Source: an archaeon (GTDB lineage Archaea; Asgardarchaeota; Thorarchaeia; Thorarchaeales; Thorarchaeaceae). From it: a stretch of 18,151 bases of DNA. This document shows positions 318 through 10,649 of the stretch, one piece after another (position 1 is the first letter of the stretch; every line of letters begins with the position of its first letter). The position numbers and the translations under genes are program-made. The notes beneath the pieces are model-generated. The model saw only the letters and a list, made by a program, of their open reading frames with translations. It searched no databases and was not told the DNA's origin. Location of the stretch: positions 1 through 18,151 of the forward strand of contig JAJRWI010000021.1 in assembly GCA_024276825.1 (NCBI GenBank), in the 5' to 3' direction.

Positions 318-2537
318 TCATAAGGTCAACAAGAAAAGAACAGTCCATATAATCACAGGCGACAGTATCCAAGCAATGGCCTCTCCTGCGACCACACCAC
401 TCAATAGCCTTGTAGTCCTATCTCTCAATGGATCACAAAATGCCACTTGCTCATCCTCCTCACGAACCGACATGTTCTTTTTCAGCTTGTAATCGATAAT
501 TCCCCCAAAGAGCATGGCGACTGATGCTGCTGGCGGGATTAAAACCCCTACAGCAAGACTGATGGCACTGAGCTTACGCTTGTGAAGCTCCCTACCTGCC
601 AAGTATCCAGCAACTCCAAAGCTTATCAAATATATGAACACAAGAATTGGGTTTGCATCAGGCCATATGTCGAAGCCCGGCAGTCTGAGATTTCCGAGAC
701 CTCTCAGGCTGATCACAAGAAATCCAAATAACTGGGCTGCCGGCGCTGGGAAGTCAGTCCCACCAAATCCGTATTCAGAATAGATCAAATATGTTATCAA
801 TGAACCGCCAAATGTGCCAAGAACTGCCCCTATAAAGACTGCCTTGGCAATATCTCTCCCTCTTACACCAGTCAGCCTTCCAAGCTTGAGATGCACTAGC
901 AGTGCAATAGCAGCATCCTGAAGAGCTCCGAGCATGGACATGAATGTCGTGATTGCAGCGAACCCAACCTTGAATATCAGAATTGCAGGAATCGCAATGA
1001 TGTCTGAAATATATCCTGCCAACATTCCAGTTTCACTTATCGCTCTTGCTGTGAAATATGCTGAAAACAGAACAACTGGCGACCCCAAAATGACCAATAG
1101 GAATGGGATTTCAAGCCCTCCAAACGGGCGAAATATGGAAAATGCCAGGAGTGCAACTATAATGAATATCACCATTGAGACAAATGCCACCCAGATAGGC
1201 ACTCGCCCCCTTGTTTTCTTAAGATAGCCTCTGGGGTCACTCACAATTTCTTTGATGTCCTTTCTGATCCCTCTGAAGTCGAACAGGTCCTCCTTAATTC
1301 CCATTATTCTGGACAAGTCAGAGGTCTTATGTGGTCGGTCTATTATAATCACATCTTTGTCTCTTTTTGTACGATGATTATTCACAGCGGTTTCAAACTC
1401 ATTAGGGTCCATTCGCCCCTTTCCAGACAAGATGTCACTTACAATCACAGATGCAAAGACACCAAGGGCCAAATACAGGATCTCTGGTCTCTGAAGGTGC
1501 GCTCCAAAGCTCACCAATTGGGCGCCCTCTAATATCACCCAGATGAAGAATGACACGACACTTCCAATGAATAGAACAATCACCCTCTTCCAGCCCATAA
1601 AGAAACCCATGCTTGCAATCAAGGGTGAGTTTGTGATTCCAATCCAATCAGGTATGGCATTCACAGCAGGTATGACTTGACTCAAAGCATGTGGGAATGA
1701 TGATAACGATAGTGCGGGATTGAACCCCTCCGCTATTCTCGAACTTCCAACCCACAGGCCCGCAACAGTCATCCCTGCAATCACTTCCCTCTTTGCACTC
1801 TCGTCAGCGCCCAGAGCAATGATGCATTCGGCCTGTGGCTTTACCTGTGGCCAAGGTTCATCTTCAAACCGTTGTCTTAGAGGTGCTAAAATGAGTATTC
1901 CACACAGTGCACTCAGACCTGTGACGAATGCAATGAATGGGTATGTGATGATACTTGCAGCATGAAGGGGGTCAAATATTGCAATTGCTGGGAACACAAT
2001 CAGCACACCAATGGCAATCATTGATGAGCCGTTGGCAATAGCAACCACTATTGTGTTCTCTTCGGGTGTGTATCTTCCTCGCGTGCTGAGAATGAGTGCA
2101 CCCAGCATCTCTGCTCCAACAAAATAAACCACTCCAAGCTTTAATGCAATATAGATTCCGAGAAAGGTCATAATTATGCCAACAATGATGCCCGTTCCCA
2201 CGGCCCGTTTGGTCAAAGGAAACTTTGGTTCGCTCATCATAGCAGCATATAGGAGTATCCCAAAAGCCGCCATTACAACAACTTCTGAGAAATGCCCCGA
2301 TATTATTGAAACCCCAAGATATGCAAACGAACCCAATGATAGCAAGGTCAATTCTTTCTTATCAGGAGGCTCGCCAACAAGAGCGGCTGTCAGAAGAGCA
2401 ATCTCAATACCCGCGCCAACGACTTCTGCAGGATTAACCCAAACATCCATTATTATTGCATAAAGGGCATATAGAAACCCCCCGAAGAAGAGTCCTGCCA
2501 GCAGTGCCCTGTCAGATCTGCTCTTCTTCTTCTTCAT
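318..2537 (-). CDS. OPT/YSL-family oligopeptide transporter with an extra N-terminal membrane segment
   Basis: 739-aa polytopic ORF with GGAGG SD before the ATG. OPT-like motifs: LTKRAVGTG...IYIALKLG, ENTIVVAIA, PLRQRF..EPWP, QD...HLKLGRLTG, FPAPAAQLF and SGVVAGEAI. Confidence 0.8.
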   Translation of the reverse strand: MKKKKSRSDRALLAGLFFGGFLYALYAIIMDVWVNPAEVVGAGIEIALLTAALVGEPPDKKELTLLSLGSFAYLGVSIISGHFSEVVVMAAFGILLYAAMMSEPKFPLTKRAVGTGIIVGIIMTFLGIYIALKLGVVYFVGAEMLGALILSTRGRYTPEENTIVVAIANGSSMIAIGVLIVFPAIAIFDPLHAASIITYPFIAFVTGLSALCGILILAPLRQRFEDEPWPQVKPQAECIIALGADESAKREVIAGMTVAGLWVGSSRIAEGFNPALSLSSFPHALSQVIPAVNAIPDWIGITNSPLIASMGFFMGWKRVIVLFIGSVVSFFIWVILEGAQLVSFGAHLQRPEILYLALGVFASVIVSDILSGKGRMDPNEFETAVNNHRTKRDKDVIIIDRPHKTSDLSRIMGIKEDLFDFRGIRKDIKEIVSDPRGYLKKTRGRVPIWVAFVSMVIFIIVALLAFSIFRPFGGLEIPFLLVILGSPVVLFSAYFTARAISETGMLAGYISDIIAIPAILIFKVGFAAITTFMSMLGALQDAAIALLVHLKLGRLTGVRGRDIAKAVFIGAVLGTFGGSLITYLIYSEYGFGGTDFPAPAAQLFGFLVISLRGLGNLRLPGFDIWPDANPILVFIYLISFGVAGYLAGRELHKRKLSAISLAVGVLIPPAASVAMLFGGIIDYKLKKNMSVREEDEQVAFCDPLRDRTTRLLSGVVAGEAIAWILSPVIIWTVLFLLTL

Positions 2538-2644
2538 TCAATGGCCTCCAGAAAGTCTCTTTGTTATTACTAGGGGGTGTTATTTGGTTGTGGTGCGGGC
2601 ACAATGGGAACGTTAAAACTTTGCCATTCTTATAGCACTTAGTA

Positions 2645-2947
2645 TCACAGATTTCCCAAGATTCTCGCTACTTCTTGGGGTTTCTTCCCCCTGATAAGGA
2701 TGACTTTGTTTCTAGATCTATGTCCTGATACAATCACAACATCAGATGTTGAAATTCCCATGAGTTTTGCAAGCCTCTTGATTAATTCTTTATTCGCCTT
2801 TCCCTCTTTTGCTGGCGATCGCAGATTCAACAGTATATGGGAATCATCAACAATTGAAATAAAATTCCTGCTTTTAGAATTAGGCCTGACAGTCAGACTA
2901 ACGAGTGTCCCTTCCTCAGTGGGCCTAAATATACTCATGGTCATCAC
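2645..2947 (-). CDS. DUF167/UPF0235 (YggU-like) protein; start may be ATG at 2938
   Basis: Characteristic DUF167 pattern: V.PNSK...L.L.SPAKEGKANKELIKRLAKLMGI..SDV.IVSGHRSRNK.I.I. Confidence 0.92.
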   Translation of the reverse strand: MMTMSIFRPTEEGTLVSLTVRPNSKSRNFISIVDDSHILLNLRSPAKEGKANKELIKRLAKLMGISTSDVVIVSGHRSRNKVILIRGKKPQEVARILGNL

Positions 2948-3073
2948 ATATGTGTATTATACCGATTGACAAGTTCTATTGATGATTTTATAGATATCGA
3001 GAATTTCTTTTTATTCGGTGAGAACAGATACCTTATTGAATATCACTAACTTATACAGGATAGGTGAAAACAA

Positions 3074-3454
3074 ATGTCGGATCCAGTGATGGATGTATAC
3101 ACAAAAGCTTACGAGTCCTCTGGACAGAAAATCCAGGCCTTTGGAGTTATTACTGCCAGTGGGCAAGTTCTATGGCAGAGCAGTAATTGGGATTTGACAG
3201 CTGATGCTGCTTCTCTCGTGGCAGCTGTCAAAGGCAAGGCGCCCAGCGTGTCTCAGAATCAGGTCAAATATAGCACACTTCAGAGCAGACCTGACAGTCT
3301 TGTGGCTAGAAGTGTGGCTGGTCATGGAATACTGATTCTTGTAAAAATTGATGGCGATAAATGGGTGTGTGCATGGGCATCTCCCGATGCAAGTCCTGAC
3401 CAAGTCTATGTTGATGTTGATCGGGCAGCACGTGCATTAAAGGGCAAAATCTAA
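3074..3454 (+). CDS. Asgard (Thor-like) profilin, copy 1
   Basis: 126 aa with AGGTGA SD. It has I.AFGVI...G.V.WQ..NWDL, V..N.VKYS, VA.SV.G.G.LI and W..AWASPDA.PD..YVDV.RAA..L, the motif pattern I recognise from Loki/Thor/Odin profilins. Confidence 0.85.
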   Translation: MSDPVMDVYTKAYESSGQKIQAFGVITASGQVLWQSSNWDLTADAASLVAAVKGKAPSVSQNQVKYSTLQSRPDSLVARSVAGHGILILVKIDGDKWVCAWASPDASPDQVYVDVDRAARALKGKI

Positions 3455-3455
3455 T

Positions 3456-3482
3456 GGGGCGTTGGCGGCGATGGCCCGCCCC
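3456..3482 (+). terminator. GC-rich hairpin directly after the profilin-1 stop (terminator, attenuator or stabiliser)
   Basis: GGGGCG (3456-3461) pairs with CGCCCC (3477-3482), with further internal GGC/GCC pairing. Confidence 0.4.
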
Positions 3483-3521
3483 TATAATCTATTACAAGCC
3501 ATAGAATATGGAGTCTGAATC

Positions 3522-3893
3522 ATGGAGTCTGCAATCGAATCAGTATGGAATAAACTATACTCGAACAACCCAAAGATTCAGGCATTTGCCGTGGCTAAGG
3601 ATGCCTCTGTGATCTGGCAGACCGCAAACTGGAATCCGGCTGCAGAAATTGGGACGATTATGAACAGTGTGGCTCATGTTTCTTCCACAATCTCTCTGGG
3701 TGGGGTGTCCTATAGCAGGATAAGCTCTGACTCCGACTCATATGTTGCATCTGCAGGTGCCAGTGGCAATCTCTTGATCACACGTGTACAAGGCAATCTA
3801 TGGATGCTTGCTTGGGCTGCCAGCAATGCAGATCCCGACCTCTCTATTATTGATCTAAAAAAGGCCGCACTGGACCTTCTAAAGAGAATTTGA
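3522..3893 (+). CDS. Asgard profilin paralog, copy 2 (divergent)
   Basis: 123 aa, collinear with copy 1: KIQAF.V, V.WQ..NW, V.YS, DS.VA, W..AWA..A.PD...D...AA..L..I. GGAG SD upstream. Confidence 0.8.
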   Translation: MESAIESVWNKLYSNNPKIQAFAVAKDASVIWQTANWNPAAEIGTIMNSVAHVSSTISLGGVSYSRISSDSDSYVASAGASGNLLITRVQGNLWMLAWAASNADPDLSIIDLKKAALDLLKRI

Positions 3894-3983
3894 CGCTCCT
3901 TCCAATATGTTCTTTTGGGGGATTGAACTAGAAATCAACTGTCAACAATGTTTCATCTAACAAACAGGTGAGGGAACTAATCA

Positions 3984-4223
3984 ATGACAATCACAGCATT
4001 CATCATGCTTAAAATAGAGAGTAAGAATAACCGGGAAATCTTTGAAAAGGTCAAATCACTTGAAGAGGCTGAAGAGGCCTATTTGCTCTTTGGTGCCTAT
4101 GACATTATTATCAAAGGCATTTTCAAGTCTAACAAAGACCTTAGCACTTTTGTTGTTGACACTCTGGGCAGTATTGACGGAGTTGTTGACACTCTGACAA
4201 ACGTCTGTGCTTCGTGTGATTAG
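3984..4223 (+). CDS. Stand-alone Lrp/AsnC ligand-binding (RAM) domain protein, no HTH
   Basis: 79 aa with AFIMLK...EEAYLLFGAYDIIIK....L..FV...L..IDGV..T.T, the AsnC C-terminal domain pattern. AGGTGA SD. Ends in CASCD. Confidence 0.88.
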   Translation: MTITAFIMLKIESKNNREIFEKVKSLEEAEEAYLLFGAYDIIIKGIFKSNKDLSTFVVDTLGSIDGVVDTLTNVCASCD

Positions 4224-4281: not shown

Positions 4282-5028
4282 TTATTCTTCAGGAAACAGG
4301 ATCTCTCTTAGTCTCTTGTAGGCAGCACTGGTTTCAGGATTTCCGAGTGAATGTATCTCAACAAGCAGTTCATACATGTCTAAGACTTCCTTGTTGGCTA
4401 TGTCTGCATTTATTATTCTTCCAATCGCTTTCCTACTGTTTATCTGCGATAGATATAGTTCTGTAAGAAGGCGCTTTATCTCTGCCTTGTCACCCTCATC
4501 AATGTTGAGACTGAAAGTCCCACACAATCTGTTTGTGAACTTATCAACTCTCTTACGAATTATGCTCTTGTCTATTGTCAACACACCAGTAGTGACAATA
4601 AAGCCCTCTGCAGTTCTCCGATAATAGTTTGTCTTTCTCTCTCCCCTCTGTACTGTCCCATACTTGATGACAAAACCATGTTCAATGAGCTTTGGCAGAT
4701 GGTGATAAACTTGATTCTTGGTGATCTCCTCAATGCCCTCAGACTCTTTGGAGAGCTTGACCATCTCAACTACTGAAAGTGCATATCTCCTTACAATTCG
4801 TTGTCTGATGATGCGATCACCGGTCTTCTCATCAATTGACTCAATTGTCAGTGTGTCTTCAATCCCATCCTTGAGAACTTTCAGGATTTGTATTCTTACA
4901 GGATCATCGAGCTCTTTGGCCCGTTCCTTTTCAGTGATAAACTCGATCTCTTTGACTCCCTTTCGGGCCTCTTTTGTCAGAACTATTCCTCTTAATGTGT
5001 CAGTAATCTCATCATTCAACGATGACAC
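4282..5028 (-). CDS. Winged helix-turn-helix (ArsR/HTH_20-like) transcriptional regulator with an inserted beta-hairpin
   Basis: AKELDDPVRIQILKVL ... ALSVVEM ... ITKNQVYHHLPKLIEHGFV ... TNYYRRTA is an archaeal ArsR-like wHTH, with a ~25-aa insertion after helix 2. The start is GTG 5028 or TTG 5019. Confidence 0.8.
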   Translation of the reverse strand: MSSLNDEITDTLRGIVLTKEARKGVKEIEFITEKERAKELDDPVRIQILKVLKDGIEDTLTIESIDEKTGDRIIRQRIVRRYALSVVEMVKLSKESEGIEEITKNQVYHHLPKLIEHGFVIKYGTVQRGERKTNYYRRTAEGFIVTTGVLTIDKSIIRKRVDKFTNRLCGTFSLNIDEGDKAEIKRLLTELYLSQINSRKAIGRIINADIANKEVLDMYELLVEIHSLGNPETSAAYKRLREILFPEE

Positions 5029-5105
5029 CTAATGCTGTTTCTGTCCATCTCATATGAACTTGAACTATTAAATATGTTGGAATCACACACATTATAACCA
5101 CATAT

Positions 5106-5169
5106 GGTTTGTTAAGCAAACCTTTATATATCAAATAATGTATAAATAAAACAGTTTGGAGCACAAACT
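5106..5169 (+). promoter_or_regulatory. Archaeal promoter (TATA TTTATATA, 5123-5130) flanked by two palindromic operator candidates GTTTG-N5-CAAAC
   Basis: GGTTTG-TTAAG-CAAACC (5106-5122) abuts the TATA box at the BRE position. AGTTTG-GAGCA-CAAACT (5153-5169) lies at the expected transcription start. Confidence 0.65.
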
Positions 5170-5186
5170 CAAAATGGGGTGCTAAT

Positions 5187-5294
5187 ATGAAACGGAAAAT
5201 ACGACTAGTTCGTTCATGGCCACGAAATCCAAGAGCTGATGTATTTCAGACCCATGCAATGGCAGTTGGCTTCATTCAGGCTTATCGGAGGTGA
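5187..5294 (+). CDS. Putative 35-aa basic microprotein MKRKIRLVRSWPRNPRADVFQTHAMAVGFIQAYRR
   Basis: GGGGTG SD (5176-5181) 5 nt before ATG 5187, downstream of the TATA box. The TGA stop is embedded in the GGAGGTGA SD of the next ORF. Not in the ORF track (<60 aa). Confidence 0.6.
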   Translation: MKRKIRLVRSWPRNPRADVFQTHAMAVGFIQAYRR

Positions 5295-5303
5295 AAAGTT
5301 ATT

Positions 5304-5393
5304 ATGAGTTCATCAAAAACAAACAACAAGCAAAAAGGTGCCAGAAGAAAGATATCAACTCAGGCAGTTGCCATGGCATACTTCAACAGGTAA
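5304..5393 (+). CDS. Putative 29-aa basic microprotein MSSSKTNNKQKGARRKISTQAVAMAYFNR
   Basis: Full GGAGGTGA SD (5287-5294) 9 nt before ATG 5304, stop TAA 5391-5393. Its C-terminal motif resembles that of the preceding microprotein. Confidence 0.62.
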   Translation: MSSSKTNNKQKGARRKISTQAVAMAYFNR

Positions 5394-5406
5394 TTCTTGA
5401 AATTGA

Positions 5407-5424
5407 CCGGCCATTTATGGCCGG
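5407..5424. terminator. GC-rich hairpin closing the microprotein operon and the convergent methyltransferase
   Basis: CCGGCCA-TTTA-TGGCCGG perfect stem, 13 nt after the microprotein-2 stop. Confidence 0.55.
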
Positions 5425-5440
5425 CATGTATATTCTAAGA

Positions 5441-6265
5441 TTATTTTCTGAATATGATCTGGTAGAATGTACCATTCATAATGTATTTTAACTCTACATC
5501 TCTCGCCTTGTCGGGAATGTTCTCTAATGGGGGCCTTGCGGCAAACAAGGAGTTTTTATTGATGATGCTCTTTCCGCGCTCAGACTCCCTCACATCTGGA
5601 GAGAGTCCCTCATCAATAACAACAACAATACCCTCTGGCTTTGTGATTCTTAACATCTCATTCATGGCTGAAGCTTTGTCGGAGAAGGTGTTGATGCCTC
5701 CCGTATGAATCACAATATCAAAGGAGTCTTTTCTATAAGGAAGATTCAACACGTTTGCATGTACAATTCCCACATCAATTCCCAGTTCTTGCATCTTTCT
5801 CATTGCAATATGTATCATACCTCTTGATAGGTCCACTCCATGAAGATCATAACTCTTTGCGGCGTTTCCCACTACATTTGCAAGTGCAACATAATTAGCG
5901 GCAGTACCAATACTGACATCGATTATTCTCTTTGGCCCATCATTAATGATTGACCGAATGATGTTCTCCCTCTCTTTTTGTATGTTGATGCCTAACCACT
6001 CATCATAGACCTTGACCGCTTCATCATAGATTTCTGCCATCTCATTATACTCAGAGATCCACTTTTCATCTTCCCCGCTCATTGGCGGATATATAAGGGA
6101 TGGAATACCATCACTAATGGTCCATCTGTGTCCCTTTTTGCATACCATCCCCCCACTCCCTATATTACCATTTAATGGTGCCACATTTGTGATCTGAAGC
6201 GCCTTATGACATCTCGGGCACTGCAATACTTCCAAGTCCTTTTCATGCATGCTATTCTCTCTCAC
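5441..6265 (-). CDS. Class I SAM-dependent methyltransferase (UbiE-like) with N-terminal Trm112-like Zn knuckle; start may be ATG near 6250
   Basis: N-terminal LQCPRCH...CKKGHRWTISDGIPSL. Motif I IIDVSIGTA, then GVDLSRGM, ANVLNLPY..DSFD.V and A.MNEMLRITKPEG. Confidence 0.88.
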   Translation of the reverse strand: MRENSMHEKDLEVLQCPRCHKALQITNVAPLNGNIGSGGMVCKKGHRWTISDGIPSLIYPPMSGEDEKWISEYNEMAEIYDEAVKVYDEWLGINIQKERENIIRSIINDGPKRIIDVSIGTAANYVALANVVGNAAKSYDLHGVDLSRGMIHIAMRKMQELGIDVGIVHANVLNLPYRKDSFDIVIHTGGINTFSDKASAMNEMLRITKPEGIVVVIDEGLSPDVRESERGKSIINKNSLFAARPPLENIPDKARDVELKYIMNGTFYQIIFRK

Positions 6266-6356: not shown

Positions 6357-7196
6357 TTAATGACCGATAATCTCTTGGATACTGGCCAGCAGTGCCATTA
6401 TGACCTGAAGTTGAAAGATTACTATCATCGGATTACGAATCTGCATGGCCCAAGGCCTCCGTTGATCAGACTGCGACTTGAAAATTGCAATACTCTGAGA
6501 GTTATCAATCACAATCACAGATATCTGACTTGGATCCCAACCTGCCACGTCTAGACGGTCATCATTCAGCACAATCTTCATCCTATCAACTAGGACCTTT
6601 GAGCTAACACCGCTAAGATCTTGGATTGTTAGATACTGTTGAAACTCACTATTCAACTGATCGTCTATTTTTGGTGTTAGCAGAGTTATGGGAACACCAA
6701 TTGCTCTTGCTTTGGCGAATGCAGGCCTTAGCATTCTCAACAGATCGAAATCTTGGGTTGCAATGAGTATCTCTTCTCCTGCCAACGAAATCTCTCTTCT
6801 AAGGCACACCTTGATTTGTTCCACGCCTTCTAGTATCATCACCTGTTCTTCGATCTCCATATCTCTCTCCTGTTCGAGTCGTTCCAGCATTCTCTGAGCT
6901 GTATTTCCTGCAGCCTCAATCTTTTCGAGAAGGAGTGGGATTGCAAAGCCAGGGCTATATGCCAGAAACTGTGCAGGATTTGTCCCACAAATCTTATTGA
7001 TGATCCCTTTTCTCTCTAACGAGGCTAACACACTATACACCTTGCTCCTTGGCATCTCTGCCTTTTCTGCAATCTTCGTTGCAGTACTCTTGCCTAGTCT
7101 GACAAGTGTTTGGTATGCCTTTGCCTCATTCTTCTGTAGTCCAATTTTCATAAGATCTGAAATCACAATGTCTTTGATCATCCTTAACTGCTCCAA
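6357..7196 (-). CDS. TrmB-family transcriptional regulator (N-terminal wHTH plus PLD-like effector domain); start may be ATG 7181
   Basis: IGLQKNEAKAYQTLV..G..TA..IA..A.MPRSKVYSVL.SL..KG is the TrmB HTH. C-terminal A.EEI.I...A..IGV.I.LL...VIDN is the effector domain. Confidence 0.9.
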   Translation of the reverse strand: MEQLRMIKDIVISDLMKIGLQKNEAKAYQTLVRLGKSTATKIAEKAEMPRSKVYSVLASLERKGIINKICGTNPAQFLAYSPGFAIPLLLEKIEAAGNTAQRMLERLEQERDMEIEEQVMILEGVEQIKVCLRREISLAGEEILIATQDFDLLRMLRPAFAKARAIGVPITLLTPKIDDQLNSEFQQYLTIQDLSGVSSKVLVDRMKIVLNDDRLDVAGWDPSQISVIVIDNSQSIAIFKSQSDQRRPWAMQIRNPMIVIFQLQVIMALLASIQEIIGH

Positions 7197-7216
7197 TCAG
7201 TCATTTCTGAGTGAAT

Positions 7217-7329
7217 ATTGTCACCCCAATAGTGACAATCCTATACTATGGTATGAAAAATAGATTTCCACAATAAATACCTGTCATCCTTGAATTACAG
7301 ATTTTTCATTTGTCACTCATCTCGTTACA
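7217..7329. promoter_or_regulatory. Repeated palindromic operator candidates TGTCAC-N7-GT[GT]ACA in the TrmB/ABC divergent promoter
   Basis: ATTGTCAC-N7-GTGACAAT (7217-7239) is perfect. TGTCAC-N7-GTTACA lies at 7311-7329 and a degenerate TGTCAT-N6-ATTACA at 7282-7299. A TATA-like TATATTTA is at ~7335-7342. Confidence 0.6.
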
Positions 7330-7363
7330 TCATCTATATTTATCATCCAATTACTATTTTAGA

Positions 7364-8329
7364 ATGGTGATAGTCCTGCCATTCATGGTTGAGATTCGGG
7401 ACTTGACCTTCGTCTATGATGGCCAAGTTAAAGCAGTAGATAATCTCTCATTCAACATTGAACAGGGTGAGATCTTGGGTCTTTTGGGACCTAATGGCGC
7501 TGGAAAGTCTACAACTGTGAAACTATTGATGGGCGTTCTGAAACCGACTTCTGGGAGCGTGAAAGTCGCAGGTCTTGAGGTTTCTGAAAATCTCGCTGAA
7601 ATACGACGGCGAATTGGATTTATGCCTCAAGAAACCGCTCTATATCATGAATTGACTGCTCAAGAAACTCTTGAGTATCATGCTGAGTTATATGGCGTTC
7701 CAAAGAATGAGATAGATGAAAGAATCTCAAGAATGTTGAAACTTGCAGGTCTGACTGACAGAAAGGATGACCTCGTTCGAACTTTCTCGGGAGGGATGAA
7801 GCGAAGACTGGCTCTGGTCAGGTCCATTCTGCACGACTCGGACCTTCTTATCTTTGACGAAATGAGCCTTGGAGTTGATGTGCAGAGCAGAAACCTGATC
7901 TGGAACAGAGTGCGTGATATGAAACGAGAAGGTCGTACCATTCTGTTTTGTACCAATTACATGGATGAGGCTGAAGCATTAGCTGATCGCCTGATAATCA
8001 TTGATCACGGTCGAATCATCACGGAAGGTACGCCCCGTGAGTTGAAGCAACAGCATGTTGGTGAATACTTGATTGAAGTAATGGTGGATGACTTTGAGCA
8101 TGATGAATTTTGGTTATCCCAAGAGATTGGATTAGATGTTGACAGTCTTGTAGTGGGCATGACTGGTTCAACTCTGATTACAGTAAAGAGTGACGATGGC
8201 CCCAAAGACCTGCCGCGTCTGATCACAGCCATGTCAAATGCCGGGGTCCCAGTCAAGCAGGTATCCATGCGTGAGCCCTCCCTCGATGATGTTTTTCTCT
8301 CTCTGACAGGTTCAAGACTGAGGGATTGA
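7364..8329 (+). CDS. ABC-2/DrrA-type exporter ATP-binding protein (start ATG 7364, CTG 7376 or ATG 7385)
   Basis: Walker A GPNGAGKST, Q-loop GFMPQE, signature FSGGMKRR, Walker B LLIFDE, and C-terminal PSLDDVFLSLTG..LRD. Confidence 0.93.
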   Translation: MVIVLPFMVEIRDLTFVYDGQVKAVDNLSFNIEQGEILGLLGPNGAGKSTTVKLLMGVLKPTSGSVKVAGLEVSENLAEIRRRIGFMPQETALYHELTAQETLEYHAELYGVPKNEIDERISRMLKLAGLTDRKDDLVRTFSGGMKRRLALVRSILHDSDLLIFDEMSLGVDVQSRNLIWNRVRDMKREGRTILFCTNYMDEAEALADRLIIIDHGRIITEGTPRELKQQHVGEYLIEVMVDDFEHDEFWLSQEIGLDVDSLVVGMTGSTLITVKSDDGPKDLPRLITAMSNAGVPVKQVSMREPSLDDVFLSLTGSRLRD

Positions 8330-9465
8330 CAATGCTAAGAGAACTCACAGCTGTTATCAAGAAGGACCTGCGACAGGCCAAGAGAGACCCTCGATTTGTG
8401 GCCCCATCTCTGATTGTCCCCTTTGTTCTATTGCTTGTATACTCAATACTTTGGACCTCAGTTGGAGGTGGCGAGTCATTCTATTGCGGTCTTGTAGTAC
8501 TTGATGATACGCCTCAAGCTGAAAACATGGCAGCAATAATAGAGAACATGCGTTCTACAACTAATCACACTTGGTTTTCAATACAGAGGTACAACAAATC
8601 TGAGGCTGAGCGGCTGTTCTCTGAAGGATCACTTATTGCATACATCCTAATACCTGAGGGTTTTGGAGATAATATATCGTCAGGAGAGAAAGCTAACATC
8701 ATCTTGTTCTGCAATAATATCAATGATGATGTTGTAAAGAACTATATCCATAGGGTGGAAGCGGCTGTATTACTATTCAATCAAGGGGCATATAGCCCAG
8801 ATTTCAATCAGACTGATGCTCCCATTGCAATAGAAGAGTCATACAGTTATTCACAAACTCCCGGTAACTTGGAATATATGGGTGCATCTGCCATTATGCT
8901 CTCTGTGATTGTCTGTGCGGTTGCGGGCCAAGCACTATCAACAGCTTCCGAGTTTGAGTCAAAGGCAATATACGAAACACTCAATTCTCCTAGTCCTAGG
9001 ACTGCGATAATCTTGGGTCATACTCTTGCATCAATTCCTAGAACTCTGCTAATCTTGTTTATTACACTTCCAATTGTCTATATCTCATTGGATGTTGTTC
9101 CAATCGGTAATCCAATAGTCCTGTTTCTAATCTTATTAATCACTATTCTTGCACTTGTCCCATTTGGAGAGATGATAGGAATCGTCACTAAAAAGCGCGA
9201 GCAGGCACTTCTGGGTTCTGTACTCTTTTCAGTTGTTTGCTTCTTAATGGGCGGTGGTCTTGCTCCTGTGGCAATTCTTCCAATCGAGTTTAGGATATTC
9301 TCAGTACTCCTGCCCATAACTCATTCTCTGACCCTCTGGAATCGAGTGTTTTTCTTGAACACCACAACTGGTCTAGTTTTTGGATTTACTGCGCTGGTAG
9401 CATTCTGGGTTCTGGGTACTATAGCAGTTTCATATATGACTGGACGGGAGGTTGAAAGATGTTGA
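8326..9465 (+). CDS. ABC-2 type exporter permease (ABC2_membrane_3-like)
   Basis: Overlaps the ATPase stop. N-terminal KKDLRQAKRDPR plus TM, an extracellular domain with IPEGF, E.E...YETL..P..R..IILG, and LPITH. About 6 TM segments. Confidence 0.9.
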   Translation: MTMLRELTAVIKKDLRQAKRDPRFVAPSLIVPFVLLLVYSILWTSVGGGESFYCGLVVLDDTPQAENMAAIIENMRSTTNHTWFSIQRYNKSEAERLFSEGSLIAYILIPEGFGDNISSGEKANIILFCNNINDDVVKNYIHRVEAAVLLFNQGAYSPDFNQTDAPIAIEESYSYSQTPGNLEYMGASAIMLSVIVCAVAGQALSTASEFESKAIYETLNSPSPRTAIILGHTLASIPRTLLILFITLPIVYISLDVVPIGNPIVLFLILLITILALVPFGEMIGIVTKKREQALLGSVLFSVVCFLMGGGLAPVAILPIEFRIFSVLLPITHSLTLWNRVFFLNTTTGLVFGFTALVAFWVLGTIAVSYMTGREVERC

Positions 9466-10649
9466 TCGCCCTTAGAGTACTGCAAGCCAGTATGACAAAG
9501 GAGATTAGAATCTGGAAACGCAGACCCCGCATGATAGCAATGATAATAATGCTCCCACTTCTCTTCTTGGGAGCATTTAGTATTCTAATGGGGGGTGTTT
9601 ACACAATGGGAATCGACGTTGCCCTAGTCGTTGAGGAAGAGCATCCTGGTTTCTATACCAACGCACTAATTGAAACTTTGAGTGAACCTGATCCGATTCC
9701 CCCGAGTCTTAGGTTGACTCAAATGGATGCAGAAACTGCAAACACTCTATTCCAAAATGGTGAGATTCAGCTTGTAATAATAATTCCTGCTGGATTCGAA
9801 CAAGCAATTAAGAACAATCAATCAACATCAATCATCCTGAAAATCAACAATGCACACGAAGACATGACAAAGAATTTACGAATGCCTGTCTTTCGAAAGC
9901 TGGATCAATTCTATCAAGAATATCTCCCCCAATCGGCTCCAGTTTCTTTTGAATATGTGCCCTATCAGGAGCACACATTTCCACGCCTTGCATATATGGC
10001 ATGGACATTATCAATTTACTCAATCATGTTCACATCACTACTCACAGCAGGATCATCAATGACACAAGAGTTTGAGAATGATACATTATGCGAGTTGATA
10101 ATGTCCAATCAATCACCTGTTTCAATTTATTCAGGAAAACTGATAGTAGCAGTGATGATCAGCCACATAGGTGTGCCACTGTTCTTCGCCTTTCCCTTCA
10201 TAGCTTATGGAGTATGGCCATTTGGCAATATCTTTGTCTTTCTGTCCCTCACAGTACCATTGGCATTGTTCAGCTCCTCACTTGGTCTAATGTTAGGAGC
10301 ATCACTTAGAAACTCGGTCTATGTCGTCCCACTTTCATCACTACTGGCCCTCTTTTATTGGTTTGGTGGTGGCGGAATTGCACCATTGATGCAAATAACT
10401 AATGGTCTTGATAGTCTGTTTCTGATATTCTCCCCCTTATCTAGTGTTTATAGGTCCGCTATTACCATGCTTATAAGTGGTGACTTGACATTCTATCTAT
10501 TTGACCTCGCCACAATTGGCGTTTTCTCAATGATTATGATGATTGTTGCACCTATTCTCACCATGAAGATTGCAGGCATTGATTATCATCGACTTCTCTC
10601 AAAACTCCTAATTGGCCAACACAGGATCGGAAGATCCCGAGTTACTTAA
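9459..10649 (+). CDS. ABC-2 type exporter permease, second subunit
   Basis: KEIRIWKRRPR plus TM, IIIPAGFE, QEFENDTLCEL...SP..IY.GK and GGGIAP. Overlaps the preceding permease. Confidence 0.9.
   Translation: MLIALRVLQASMTKEIRIWKRRPRMIAMIIMLPLLFLGAFSILMGGVYTMGIDVALVVEEEHPGFYTNALIETLSEPDPIPPSLRLTQMDAETANTLFQNGEIQLVIIIPAGFEQAIKNNQSTSIILKINNAHEDMTKNLRMPVFRKLDQFYQEYLPQSAPVSFEYVPYQEHTFPRLAYMAWTLSIYSIMFTSLLTAGSSMTQEFENDTLCELIMSNQSPVSIYSGKLIVAVMISHIGVPLFFAFPFIAYGVWPFGNIFVFLSLTVPLALFSSSLGLMLGASLRNSVYVVPLSSLLALFYWFGGGGIAPLMQITNGLDSLFLIFSPLSSVYRSAITMLISGDLTFYLFDLATIGVFSMIMMIVAPILTMKIAGIDYHRLLSKLLIGQHRIGRSRVT

Follow-up and report, generated by a model that had tools for sequence, protein, structure and literature searches.

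Layout of the locus

The window analysed here is a stretch of 18,151 nucleotides from the 2.9-Mb genome (98% complete) of an archaeon of the family Thorarchaeaceae, and its element of interest is a gap of 412 bp between the gene of a winged helix-turn-helix (wHTH) regulator (4282-5028, minus strand) and a methyltransferase gene (5441-6265, minus strand). A preliminary description of this DNA had read the apparently empty gap as a transcription unit for two related microproteins, controlled by the regulator that is transcribed away from them. A check of the sequence found every feature listed in that description, each where it had been placed, and the gap does hold a transcription unit for microproteins below gene-calling size, with all its parts in position. 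These parts, together with the candidate operators discussed later, are the following (SD, Shine-Dalgarno sequence; ORF, open reading frame; BRE, transcription factor B recognition element; SAM, S-adenosylmethionine; pepA, pepB and pepC, the first, second and third gene of the cassette in related genomes).

4282-5028, minus strand: wHTH regulator, 248 aa, GTG start, divergent from ORF1 and ORF2.
5065-5075, minus strand: probable TATA box of the regulator promoter, an AT-rich TTTAAT-type element, with an equivalent element at the same place in orthologous gaps.
5076-5090: candidate operator O3, GTTGG-N5-CACAC, beside the regulator TATA box; orthologues have GTTTTG-N5-(C/T)AAACC there.
5106-5122: candidate operator O1, perfect palindrome GGTTTG-N5-CAAACC, abutting the peptide TATA box at the BRE position.
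5123-5130, plus strand: TATA box of the microprotein operon, TTTATATA, assigned from sequence; orthologues have TTTATAT or TTATAT directly after O1.
5153-5169: candidate operator O2, AGTTTG-N5-CAAACT, near the expected transcription start and 47 bp after O1.
5176-5181, plus strand: SD of ORF1, GGGGTG, 5 nt before the ATG; in orthologous pepA genes, GGTGA precedes the ATG by 5-7 nt.
5187-5294, plus strand: ORF1, 35 aa, positional equivalent of pepA, strongly diverged; position, length and ending as in relatives.
5287-5294, plus strand: SD of ORF2, GGAGGTGA, overlapping the last ORF1 codons and the TGA stop.
5304-5393, plus strand: ORF2, 29 aa, a bona fide pepB by profile match.
5407-5424, plus strand: G+C-rich hairpin, 7-bp stem with 6 G-C pairs, RNA fold of -18.3 kcal/mol (z = -3.2 against shuffles).
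5441-6265, minus strand: convergent SAM methyltransferase, Trm112-like zinc ribbon plus UbiE-like domain, according to Pfam and NCBIfam.

The SD of ORF2 is embedded in the end of ORF1, and the two frames are, as read from the sequence, translationally coupled. On the other side of the gap, the AT-rich element at 5065-5075 is the probable TATA box of the regulator's own promoter. The hairpin sits between the operon and the methyltransferase gene that converges on it, at the place that pepC occupies in relatives, and it probably marks the end of the transcript or acts as its stabiliser. A search of positions 4950-5520 against Rfam 15 gave nothing at the gathering score (the best sub-threshold hits, at most 24 bits, look like chance), and the gap region contains no tRNA.

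Recurrence of the arrangement and coding evidence

The same arrangement is found beside regulator homologues of just 41-62% identity in 19 genomes and on about 28 metagenome contigs, and this recurrence, together with the profile match of ORF2 described in the next section, puts the locus far beyond chance. Nearly all divergent upstream regions of the regulator homologues of the family hold the same small ORFs, and the pattern also appears on 32 metagenome contigs, whose regulators are 39-62% identical, wherever there is sufficient upstream DNA. The ORFs, their SDs and the tail motif on which the preliminary description had relied are therefore conserved beside the homologues of the regulator, and the description thereby passes the test of refutation that it had set itself.

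Typically, the relatives carry pepA (about 35 aa), pepB (26-31 aa) and, usually as a third gene, pepC (34-41 aa, with the C-terminus E-E-V-L-x-W-E-A-T). In alignment, pepA and pepB are clear paralogues that start with M-A-L-A-K and end with S-T-x-A-[ILV]-x2-[AS]-Y-x-Y-R(R), and both are strongly basic, pepC being acidic to neutral. The SD of pepB (GGAGGT) lies inside the Y-R-R-stop codons of pepA in nearly all orthologues, and that of pepC inside the Y-R-stop codons of pepB, so that each downstream gene has its ribosome-binding site in the last codons of the preceding one and the genes would be translationally coupled. Profile-profile comparison gave no similarity between pepA/B and pepC, which means that pepC is not a detectable paralogue of the other two, and none between the regulator and either pepA/B or pepC, so that the peptides are not cut-down copies of the regulator.

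The pepA/B profile has matches in 82 of the family's 86 genomes, between 1 and 13 in each; among the matches listed, the open frames mostly have 29-38 codons. A further search with the profile found matches in 72 of 76 genomes of the family, whereas the 224 genomes searched from another 29 families of the phylum gave none. Of 1.84 billion representatives of protein clusters, only 39 match it, 38 of them with 29-70 aa, and three of the 39 (P0015, P0030 and P0038; 69-70 aa) are natural pepB-pepC fusions in which the stop codon of pepB has become a Gln codon. Outside these matches, a Pfam search with seven peptides gave nothing meaningful even at E <= 10, an ESM Atlas search with a natural pepB-pepC fusion gave no usable match, and a full-text literature search found no paper on the pepA/pepB microprotein family.

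Selection at the protein level is suggested by the substitution patterns. Between orthologues, the C-terminal 13 codons have a ratio of nonsynonymous to synonymous differences (pN/pS) of 0.37-0.49, with synonymous sites saturated. Among the five paralogous copies of one relative, seven of the eight variable sites of pepB are third codon positions, and the six variable codons differ only synonymously, without a single amino-acid change. Conserved frames, SDs, synonymous bias and fusions, all of them read from sequence, indicate that the small ORFs are genes.

A reduced version in this genome

A family profile was built without the window's own sequences and applied to the 17,964 small ORFs of the genome. 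ORF2 was the sole match (22.2 bits, E = 1.7e-4), and against the full profile it reaches E = 1.2e-7. The sequence of ORF1 no longer identifies it as a family member, and it is the equivalent of pepA by position alone. The paralogy of the two microproteins, as claimed in the preliminary description, consequently holds only in part: it is plain for pepA and pepB in relatives, and the likeness is weak in this genome (0.5 bits for ORF1 against the window-free profile). Both frames nonetheless share the anatomy of the operon, with lengths of 26-38 codons, an SD of their own, an SD within R-R-stop codons and a divergent wHTH regulator.

The ancestral cassette had three genes rather than two; pepC has been lost here, and the sequence of pepA (ORF1) has changed too much to be recognised. 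A search of the whole genome at E <= 10 failed to find pepC, and the 47 nt at its expected place hold the hairpin. A search with the pepA/B profile showed that the extra cassettes of relatives are absent as well. A relative close enough for a selection test on ORF1 was not found, the best metagenome regulator being 62% identical and partial and the rest at most 52% identical. Taken together with the strict conservation of pepB elsewhere, the content of the locus suggests a minimal version of the system in which pepB would be the core component.

The divergent regulator and its candidate operators

The regulator scores just under the Pfam cut-off of 27 bits with both PadR (25.1 bits) and HTH_20 (24.1 bits), and a search of NCBIfam with it returned nothing. 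A profile of 20 orthologues matches PH1932 (1uly/2cwe) in the PDB with E = 4.2e-9 over residues 101-242. Its AlphaFold2 model (pLDDT, the per-residue confidence score, 87) has PH1932, VanR, PadR and Phr as best Foldseek matches, that with PH1932 being the strongest (E = 5.5e-9, probability 1.0) and the other three weaker matches of fold. In the model, a beta-hairpin is inserted in the winged helix, and the C-terminal part is a domain of four helices and about 95 residues. Judged by profile and predicted fold, the regulator is a longer member of the PH1932/PadR-like wHTH kind. Pfam contains no tetratricopeptide-repeat (TPR) family that matches it, and its C-terminal domain is homologous to that of PH1932. 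Homologues with 44-51% identity are present in 23 of the 24 other sampled genomes of the family, and orthologues do not differ in the recognition helix (residues 103-112).

Paralogues of the regulator were also seen. A class with 36-39% identity occurs in three genomes directly upstream of, and co-directional with, genes of what we take to be TldD/PmbA-like peptidases, a label given by eye from their N-terminus. In one complete genome, a regulator paralogue lies 1.7 kb from a paralogue of a major facilitator superfamily (MFS) transporter, a type of gene that recurs below.

The 158-bp gap between the regulator gene and ORF1 contains three matches to GTTKG-N5-CAMAC, at 5076, 5107 and 5154 and hence within 93 bp, where 0.13 matches would be expected in the whole window. 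O1 is the single exact 17-mer of its kind in the genome. The 2.9 Mb contain four instances of the exact core GTTTG-N5-CAAAC, two at this locus and two inside genes, and no further promoter-like operator site was found in this genome at up to two mismatches. Among 48 related loci, the core is present in 35 (0.04 in shuffles) and abuts the TATA box in 27 (0.01 in shuffles); in 12 of the 48, a second core follows O1 at a distance of 47-54 bp. Five relatives have 0-2 copies of the strict 17-mer in their genomes, and the three that carry it all have one at the regulator locus.

Conserved palindromes at both promoters and an invariant recognition helix thus lend support to the control by the divergent regulator that had been proposed at the outset, and from their conservation we infer that the regulator may be a repressor that is dedicated to the micro-operon and also controls its own gene. 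Among archaeal repressors, Phr and others bind palindromic sites over the BRE/TATA region and the start site, and so block TBP/TFB or RNA polymerase.

Cassettes and operators away from the regulator

The preliminary description had tied the cassette to its regulator. This does not hold for the family at large: in relatives, as many as about six additional copies, with promoters, stand at other places in the genome and have another operator. One relative (G011) has five copies, with 88-97% identity, at unrelated sites; the repeated unit of about 410 bp has sharp boundaries, from the operator (the palindrome GTCACA-N3-TGTGAC) to just after pepC, and includes a TATA box, the three ORFs and the beginning of the T-rich tract behind them. 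The promoter module of this second type, found in G011, G001 and G005, consists of GTCACA-N3-TGTGAC, further TGTGAC/TGTGGC repeats and then ATTATATAC, and its conservation, which extends over three genera, exceeds that of the coding parts.

The same palindrome stands upstream of an MFS transporter gene and, in four genera, upstream of a gene for a bactofilin-domain protein of about 415 aa. In three of these four genera, the bactofilin-domain gene is divergent from the gene of a 107-aa HTH_45/Sso10a-like protein, with the operator between them, and this small wHTH protein may be what regulates the cassettes of type 2.

The operator of the present locus (type 1) also reaches beyond the regulator. 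At orthologous MFS loci of five relatives, a type-1 operator is accompanied by a TATA box and by micro-ORFs of the pepA/pepB family. In the genome under study, the corresponding unit lies on contig C63 (2508-4330), where the family-specific MFS transporter gene (2508-3953) is divergent from a 3-hydroxyacyl-CoA dehydrogenase gene and is preceded by a type-2-like promoter, then a small ORF (sORF) for 34 very basic residues (4063-4167, minus strand) and a hairpin with a T-run. This diverged sORF is the only related element elsewhere in the genome. Separately, the long MFS leader has, at about -150 to -20 before the start codon, an inverted repeat (GGTCAC ... GTGACCAG) that is conserved in several genera and may be an RNA structure or a further operator.

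A compact, promoter-bearing unit that multiplies within genomes could be a selfish or addiction cassette, in which the basic pepA and pepB products are harmful and the acidic pepC product neutralises them. The five copies with sharp boundaries at unrelated sites, the opposite charges of pepA/pepB and pepC, the existence of pepB-pepC fusions and the patchy copy number all fit this idea. What contradicts it is that the present genome keeps pepB without pepC, which is not what an antidote would predict, that the alignment of the units shows no evident inverted repeats at their ends and the unit holds no mobility gene, and that the copy linked to the regulator is held in stable synteny throughout the family. 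On this evidence, addiction seems to us a very remote explanation.

Products and proposed mechanism

We consider it somewhat probable that the locus is a reduced form of a Thorarchaeota-specific microprotein cassette, placed under a dedicated and autoregulated repressor, whose products are small cytoplasmic binding proteins. In such a system, a dimer of the regulator would bind the three palindromes of the 158-bp gap, with O1 covering the BRE position, O2 the expected transcription start and O3 the site beside the regulator TATA box. As there are operators at both promoters, binding would shut both back-to-back promoters until some signal releases the regulator. The resulting transcript, with a length of about 270 nt and its end near the hairpin (5407-5424), would then encode the two coupled microproteins, ORF2 as a genuine, selected pepB and ORF1 as a diverged, positional pepA, pepC having been lost. 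The most likely role of the products, which are predicted to be cytoplasmic, basic and largely disordered, would be a trans-acting one, as small subunits or modulators that bind other molecules. As for the pathway they serve, the best candidate may be that of the family-specific MFS transporter, which in relatives has the same operator and micro-ORFs of its own at its promoter.

The character of the peptides agrees with such a role. Aligned pepA, pepB and pepC sequences contain no hydrophobic or signal segment. The C-terminal motif shared by pepA and pepB can be written S-T-x-A-[ILV]-x2-[AS]-[YF]-x-[YF]-x-R, and its conserved residues would lie on one face of a helix. The AlphaFold2 model of a natural pepB-pepC fusion has a pLDDT of about 80 in the helix of the pepB motif and disorder in the rest, with isolated helices that do not pack (pTM, the global confidence score, 0.29). 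Coupled translation and fusions suggest that the products may act together. Our favoured view, and the least certain part of the whole, is that the peptides would fold on a partner, within a regulon that includes the MFS transporter in relatives.

A number of observations weigh against the interpretation as a whole. In relatives, the majority of cassettes stand apart from the regulator and have the operator GTCACA-N3-TGTGAC, so that the family can do without the regulator. The MFS locus of the present genome (on C63) has no type-1 operator, so that the link of this gene to the regulon rests on the relatives. The 3' half of O1 could partly be the BRE itself. As for ORF1, its 0.5 bits against the window-free profile have to be read against shuffles that average -1.6 and reach 7.7, and a random frame of 35 codons is open about once in ten at this base composition, so that ORF1 may be decaying.

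The locus could accordingly be a decaying remnant in which ORF1 is non-functional and only ORF2, or neither frame, is used, or else one that yields only cis-acting leader peptides or a non-coding RNA. In addition to an ORF1 that the profile does not recognise, the loss of pepC, the lack of any other cassette in the genome and the diverged state of the sORF before the C63 MFS gene are in keeping with decay. Against this, ORF1 retains the position of pepA, its exact length of 35 codons, its start, its SD and a Y-R-R-stop ending in which the following SD is encoded, ORF2 is well conserved, and O1 and O2 are perfect or near-perfect, which is unexpected for a dead locus. Leader peptides acting in cis would call for a co-directional gene after the operon, and there is none, and no Rfam family reaches threshold in support of a non-coding RNA. 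We give this explanation a minor, though real, chance.

The preliminary description had also offered roles as ligands or anti-repressors of the regulator, or as exported peptides, for which no supporting evidence was found, the peptides lacking a hydrophobic or signal segment. In its fullest form, this would be peptide signalling of the Rgg/SHP or RRNPP type, with the peptide exported (for example by the MFS transporter), trimmed to its C-terminus, re-imported and acting as an anti-repressor of the wHTH protein, resulting in autoinduction. It is true that a small gene stands divergent from its regulator, that a K/R-rich N-terminus is followed by a conserved C-terminal part, that the MFS transporter has common control sites in relatives, and that a gene for an OPT oligopeptide transporter lies 1.7 kb away in the window. 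Yet no OPT gene was seen beside the regulator in the inspected loci of G001 and G011; the regulator has a PH1932-like helical domain at its C-terminus in place of a TPR-type peptide-binding domain, many cassettes stand apart from it under another operator, and pepB-pepC fusions fit a complex better than separate pheromones. Together with the missing export segment, this makes signalling improbable. A prediction of the complex of two regulators with ORF1 from family alignments scored 0.01 against a mark of 0.32, which counts neither for nor against an interaction.

A related speculation, to which we attach little likelihood, is that the microproteins are both output and feedback signal of a circuit specific to Asgard archaea: on induction, the regulator or the MFS transporter would be bound by them or by their conserved C-terminal helices, or else the transporter would export them. 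If true, such a feedback circuit would be the first case of peptide-based autoinduction or transporter control in the archaea near eukaryotes, with amplification of the cassette tuning the dose.

Irrespective of their function, conserved, selected and multi-copy proteins of 26-40 residues, with a predicted repressor of their own and two types of operator, have stood unannotated across one archaeal family. Asgard archaea are mostly uncultured, and their annotations omit genes as small as these. The operators define a testable regulon (the regulator, the micro-operon and, in relatives, the MFS transporter), and a partner for the C-terminal helix would give a function to hundreds of hidden genes.

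Neighbouring genes and synteny

Among 51 related loci, a profilin homologue lies within 1.5 kb of the regulator in 41 and a methyltransferase homologue, at the same maximum distance, in 30. Given the frequency of the former, the block profilin-regulator-micro-operon-methyltransferase represents old synteny; the methyltransferase is a syntenic neighbour and not a demonstrated part of the system, and profilin is probably unrelated to it. In the window there are two tandem profilin-like genes (3074-3454 and 3522-3893), of which only the second matches Pfam Profilin, and weakly so (E = 0.008); profilin-like proteins are in keeping with an Asgard source. Between the profilins and the regulator, 3984-4223 encodes a 79-aa protein that is a stand-alone Lrp/AsnC ligand-binding (RAM) domain without a DNA-binding domain. 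The methyltransferase (5441-6265) joins a Trm112-like zinc ribbon, at its N-terminus, to a UbiE/MenG-like SAM domain in one chain; as a rule, Trm112 is an activator subunit in its own right. Flanking the locus (318-2537 and 6357-10649) are the gene of the OPT oligopeptide transporter, a regulator of the TrmB family together with an ABC transporter ATPase, and two further large ORFs.

The syntenic methyltransferase brings up another explanation, namely that the microproteins are precursors of modified or antimicrobial peptides, similar to ribosomally synthesized and post-translationally modified peptides (RiPP) or to leaderless multi-peptide bacteriocins, on which the methyltransferase or a distant enzyme acts and which the MFS transporter exports. 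Several tandem paralogous small genes, copies scattered through the genome in numbers that vary strongly between genera (1 to 13 matches per genome) and the occurrence of the methyltransferase in 30 of the 51 loci would suit this explanation. It is at odds with the convergent orientation of the methyltransferase, which is less syntenic than profilin, and with the neighbours of the unlinked cassettes, which were unrelated and included no recurring enzyme in the three genomes inspected. An S41 C-terminal peptidase that adjoins one cassette of G001 was tried as a partner and rejected, being present in just 2 of 10 family genomes. Moreover, conservation covers the whole C-terminus and not a leader with a variable core behind it; cores rich in Cys, Ser or Thr are absent, and the polarity of the peptides is too high for any of the known leaderless bacteriocins. 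All in all, a precursor role appears very improbable.

Comparison with known systems

The preferred reading, that of small binding proteins encoded by a repressed cassette, can be set beside several known systems, each of which resembles it in some respects. Aureocin A70 and enterocin L50 are multi-peptide leaderless bacteriocin operons, and like the cassettes they have tandem paralogous genes of about 30 codons without a leader and the involvement of a transporter. However, the peptides described here are polar and basic, lack an amphipathic hydrophobic core and include an acidic one among the three, and neither an immunity gene nor an ABC exporter is linked to the inspected cassettes. Rgg/SHP and other RRNPP systems are the regulator-peptide pairs of Firmicutes, in which a tiny gene is likewise divergent from a regulator and its product has a basic N-terminus and a conserved C-terminal part, but the Thorarchaeaceae system has no TPR-like domain, no hydrophobic export segment, an archaeal host and additional cassettes without a regulator.

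On the side of regulation, PH1932 (1uly/2cwe) and the Phr-type repressors resemble the present regulator in sequence profile and in fold, with a wHTH followed by a C-terminal helical domain, as well as in the palindromic sites predicted here over the BRE/TATA region and the transcription start. They differ from it in length (about 190 aa, against 248) and in the beta-hairpin inserted here in the winged helix; furthermore, the Pfam models stay below threshold for the present regulator, and its predicted target is a microprotein operon.

On the side of function, the small proteins of MntS-MntP, SgrT-PtsG, AcrZ-AcrB and MgtS-MgtA are trans-acting prokaryotic modulators of transporters. The microproteins share with them a size of 30-50 residues, regulated sORFs of their own and a predicted co-regulation with a transporter, as the MFS gene of relatives has the same operator and family micro-ORFs in its leader. 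There is no homology between the two sets, and the present genes differ in being three and coupled, in forming multi-copy cassettes and in lacking a membrane segment; besides, the MFS gene of this genome is without a type-1 operator. What is unusual about the system, in comparison with all of these, is the combination of three coupled genes, promoter-bearing cassettes in multiple copies and two types of operator within one Asgard family only.

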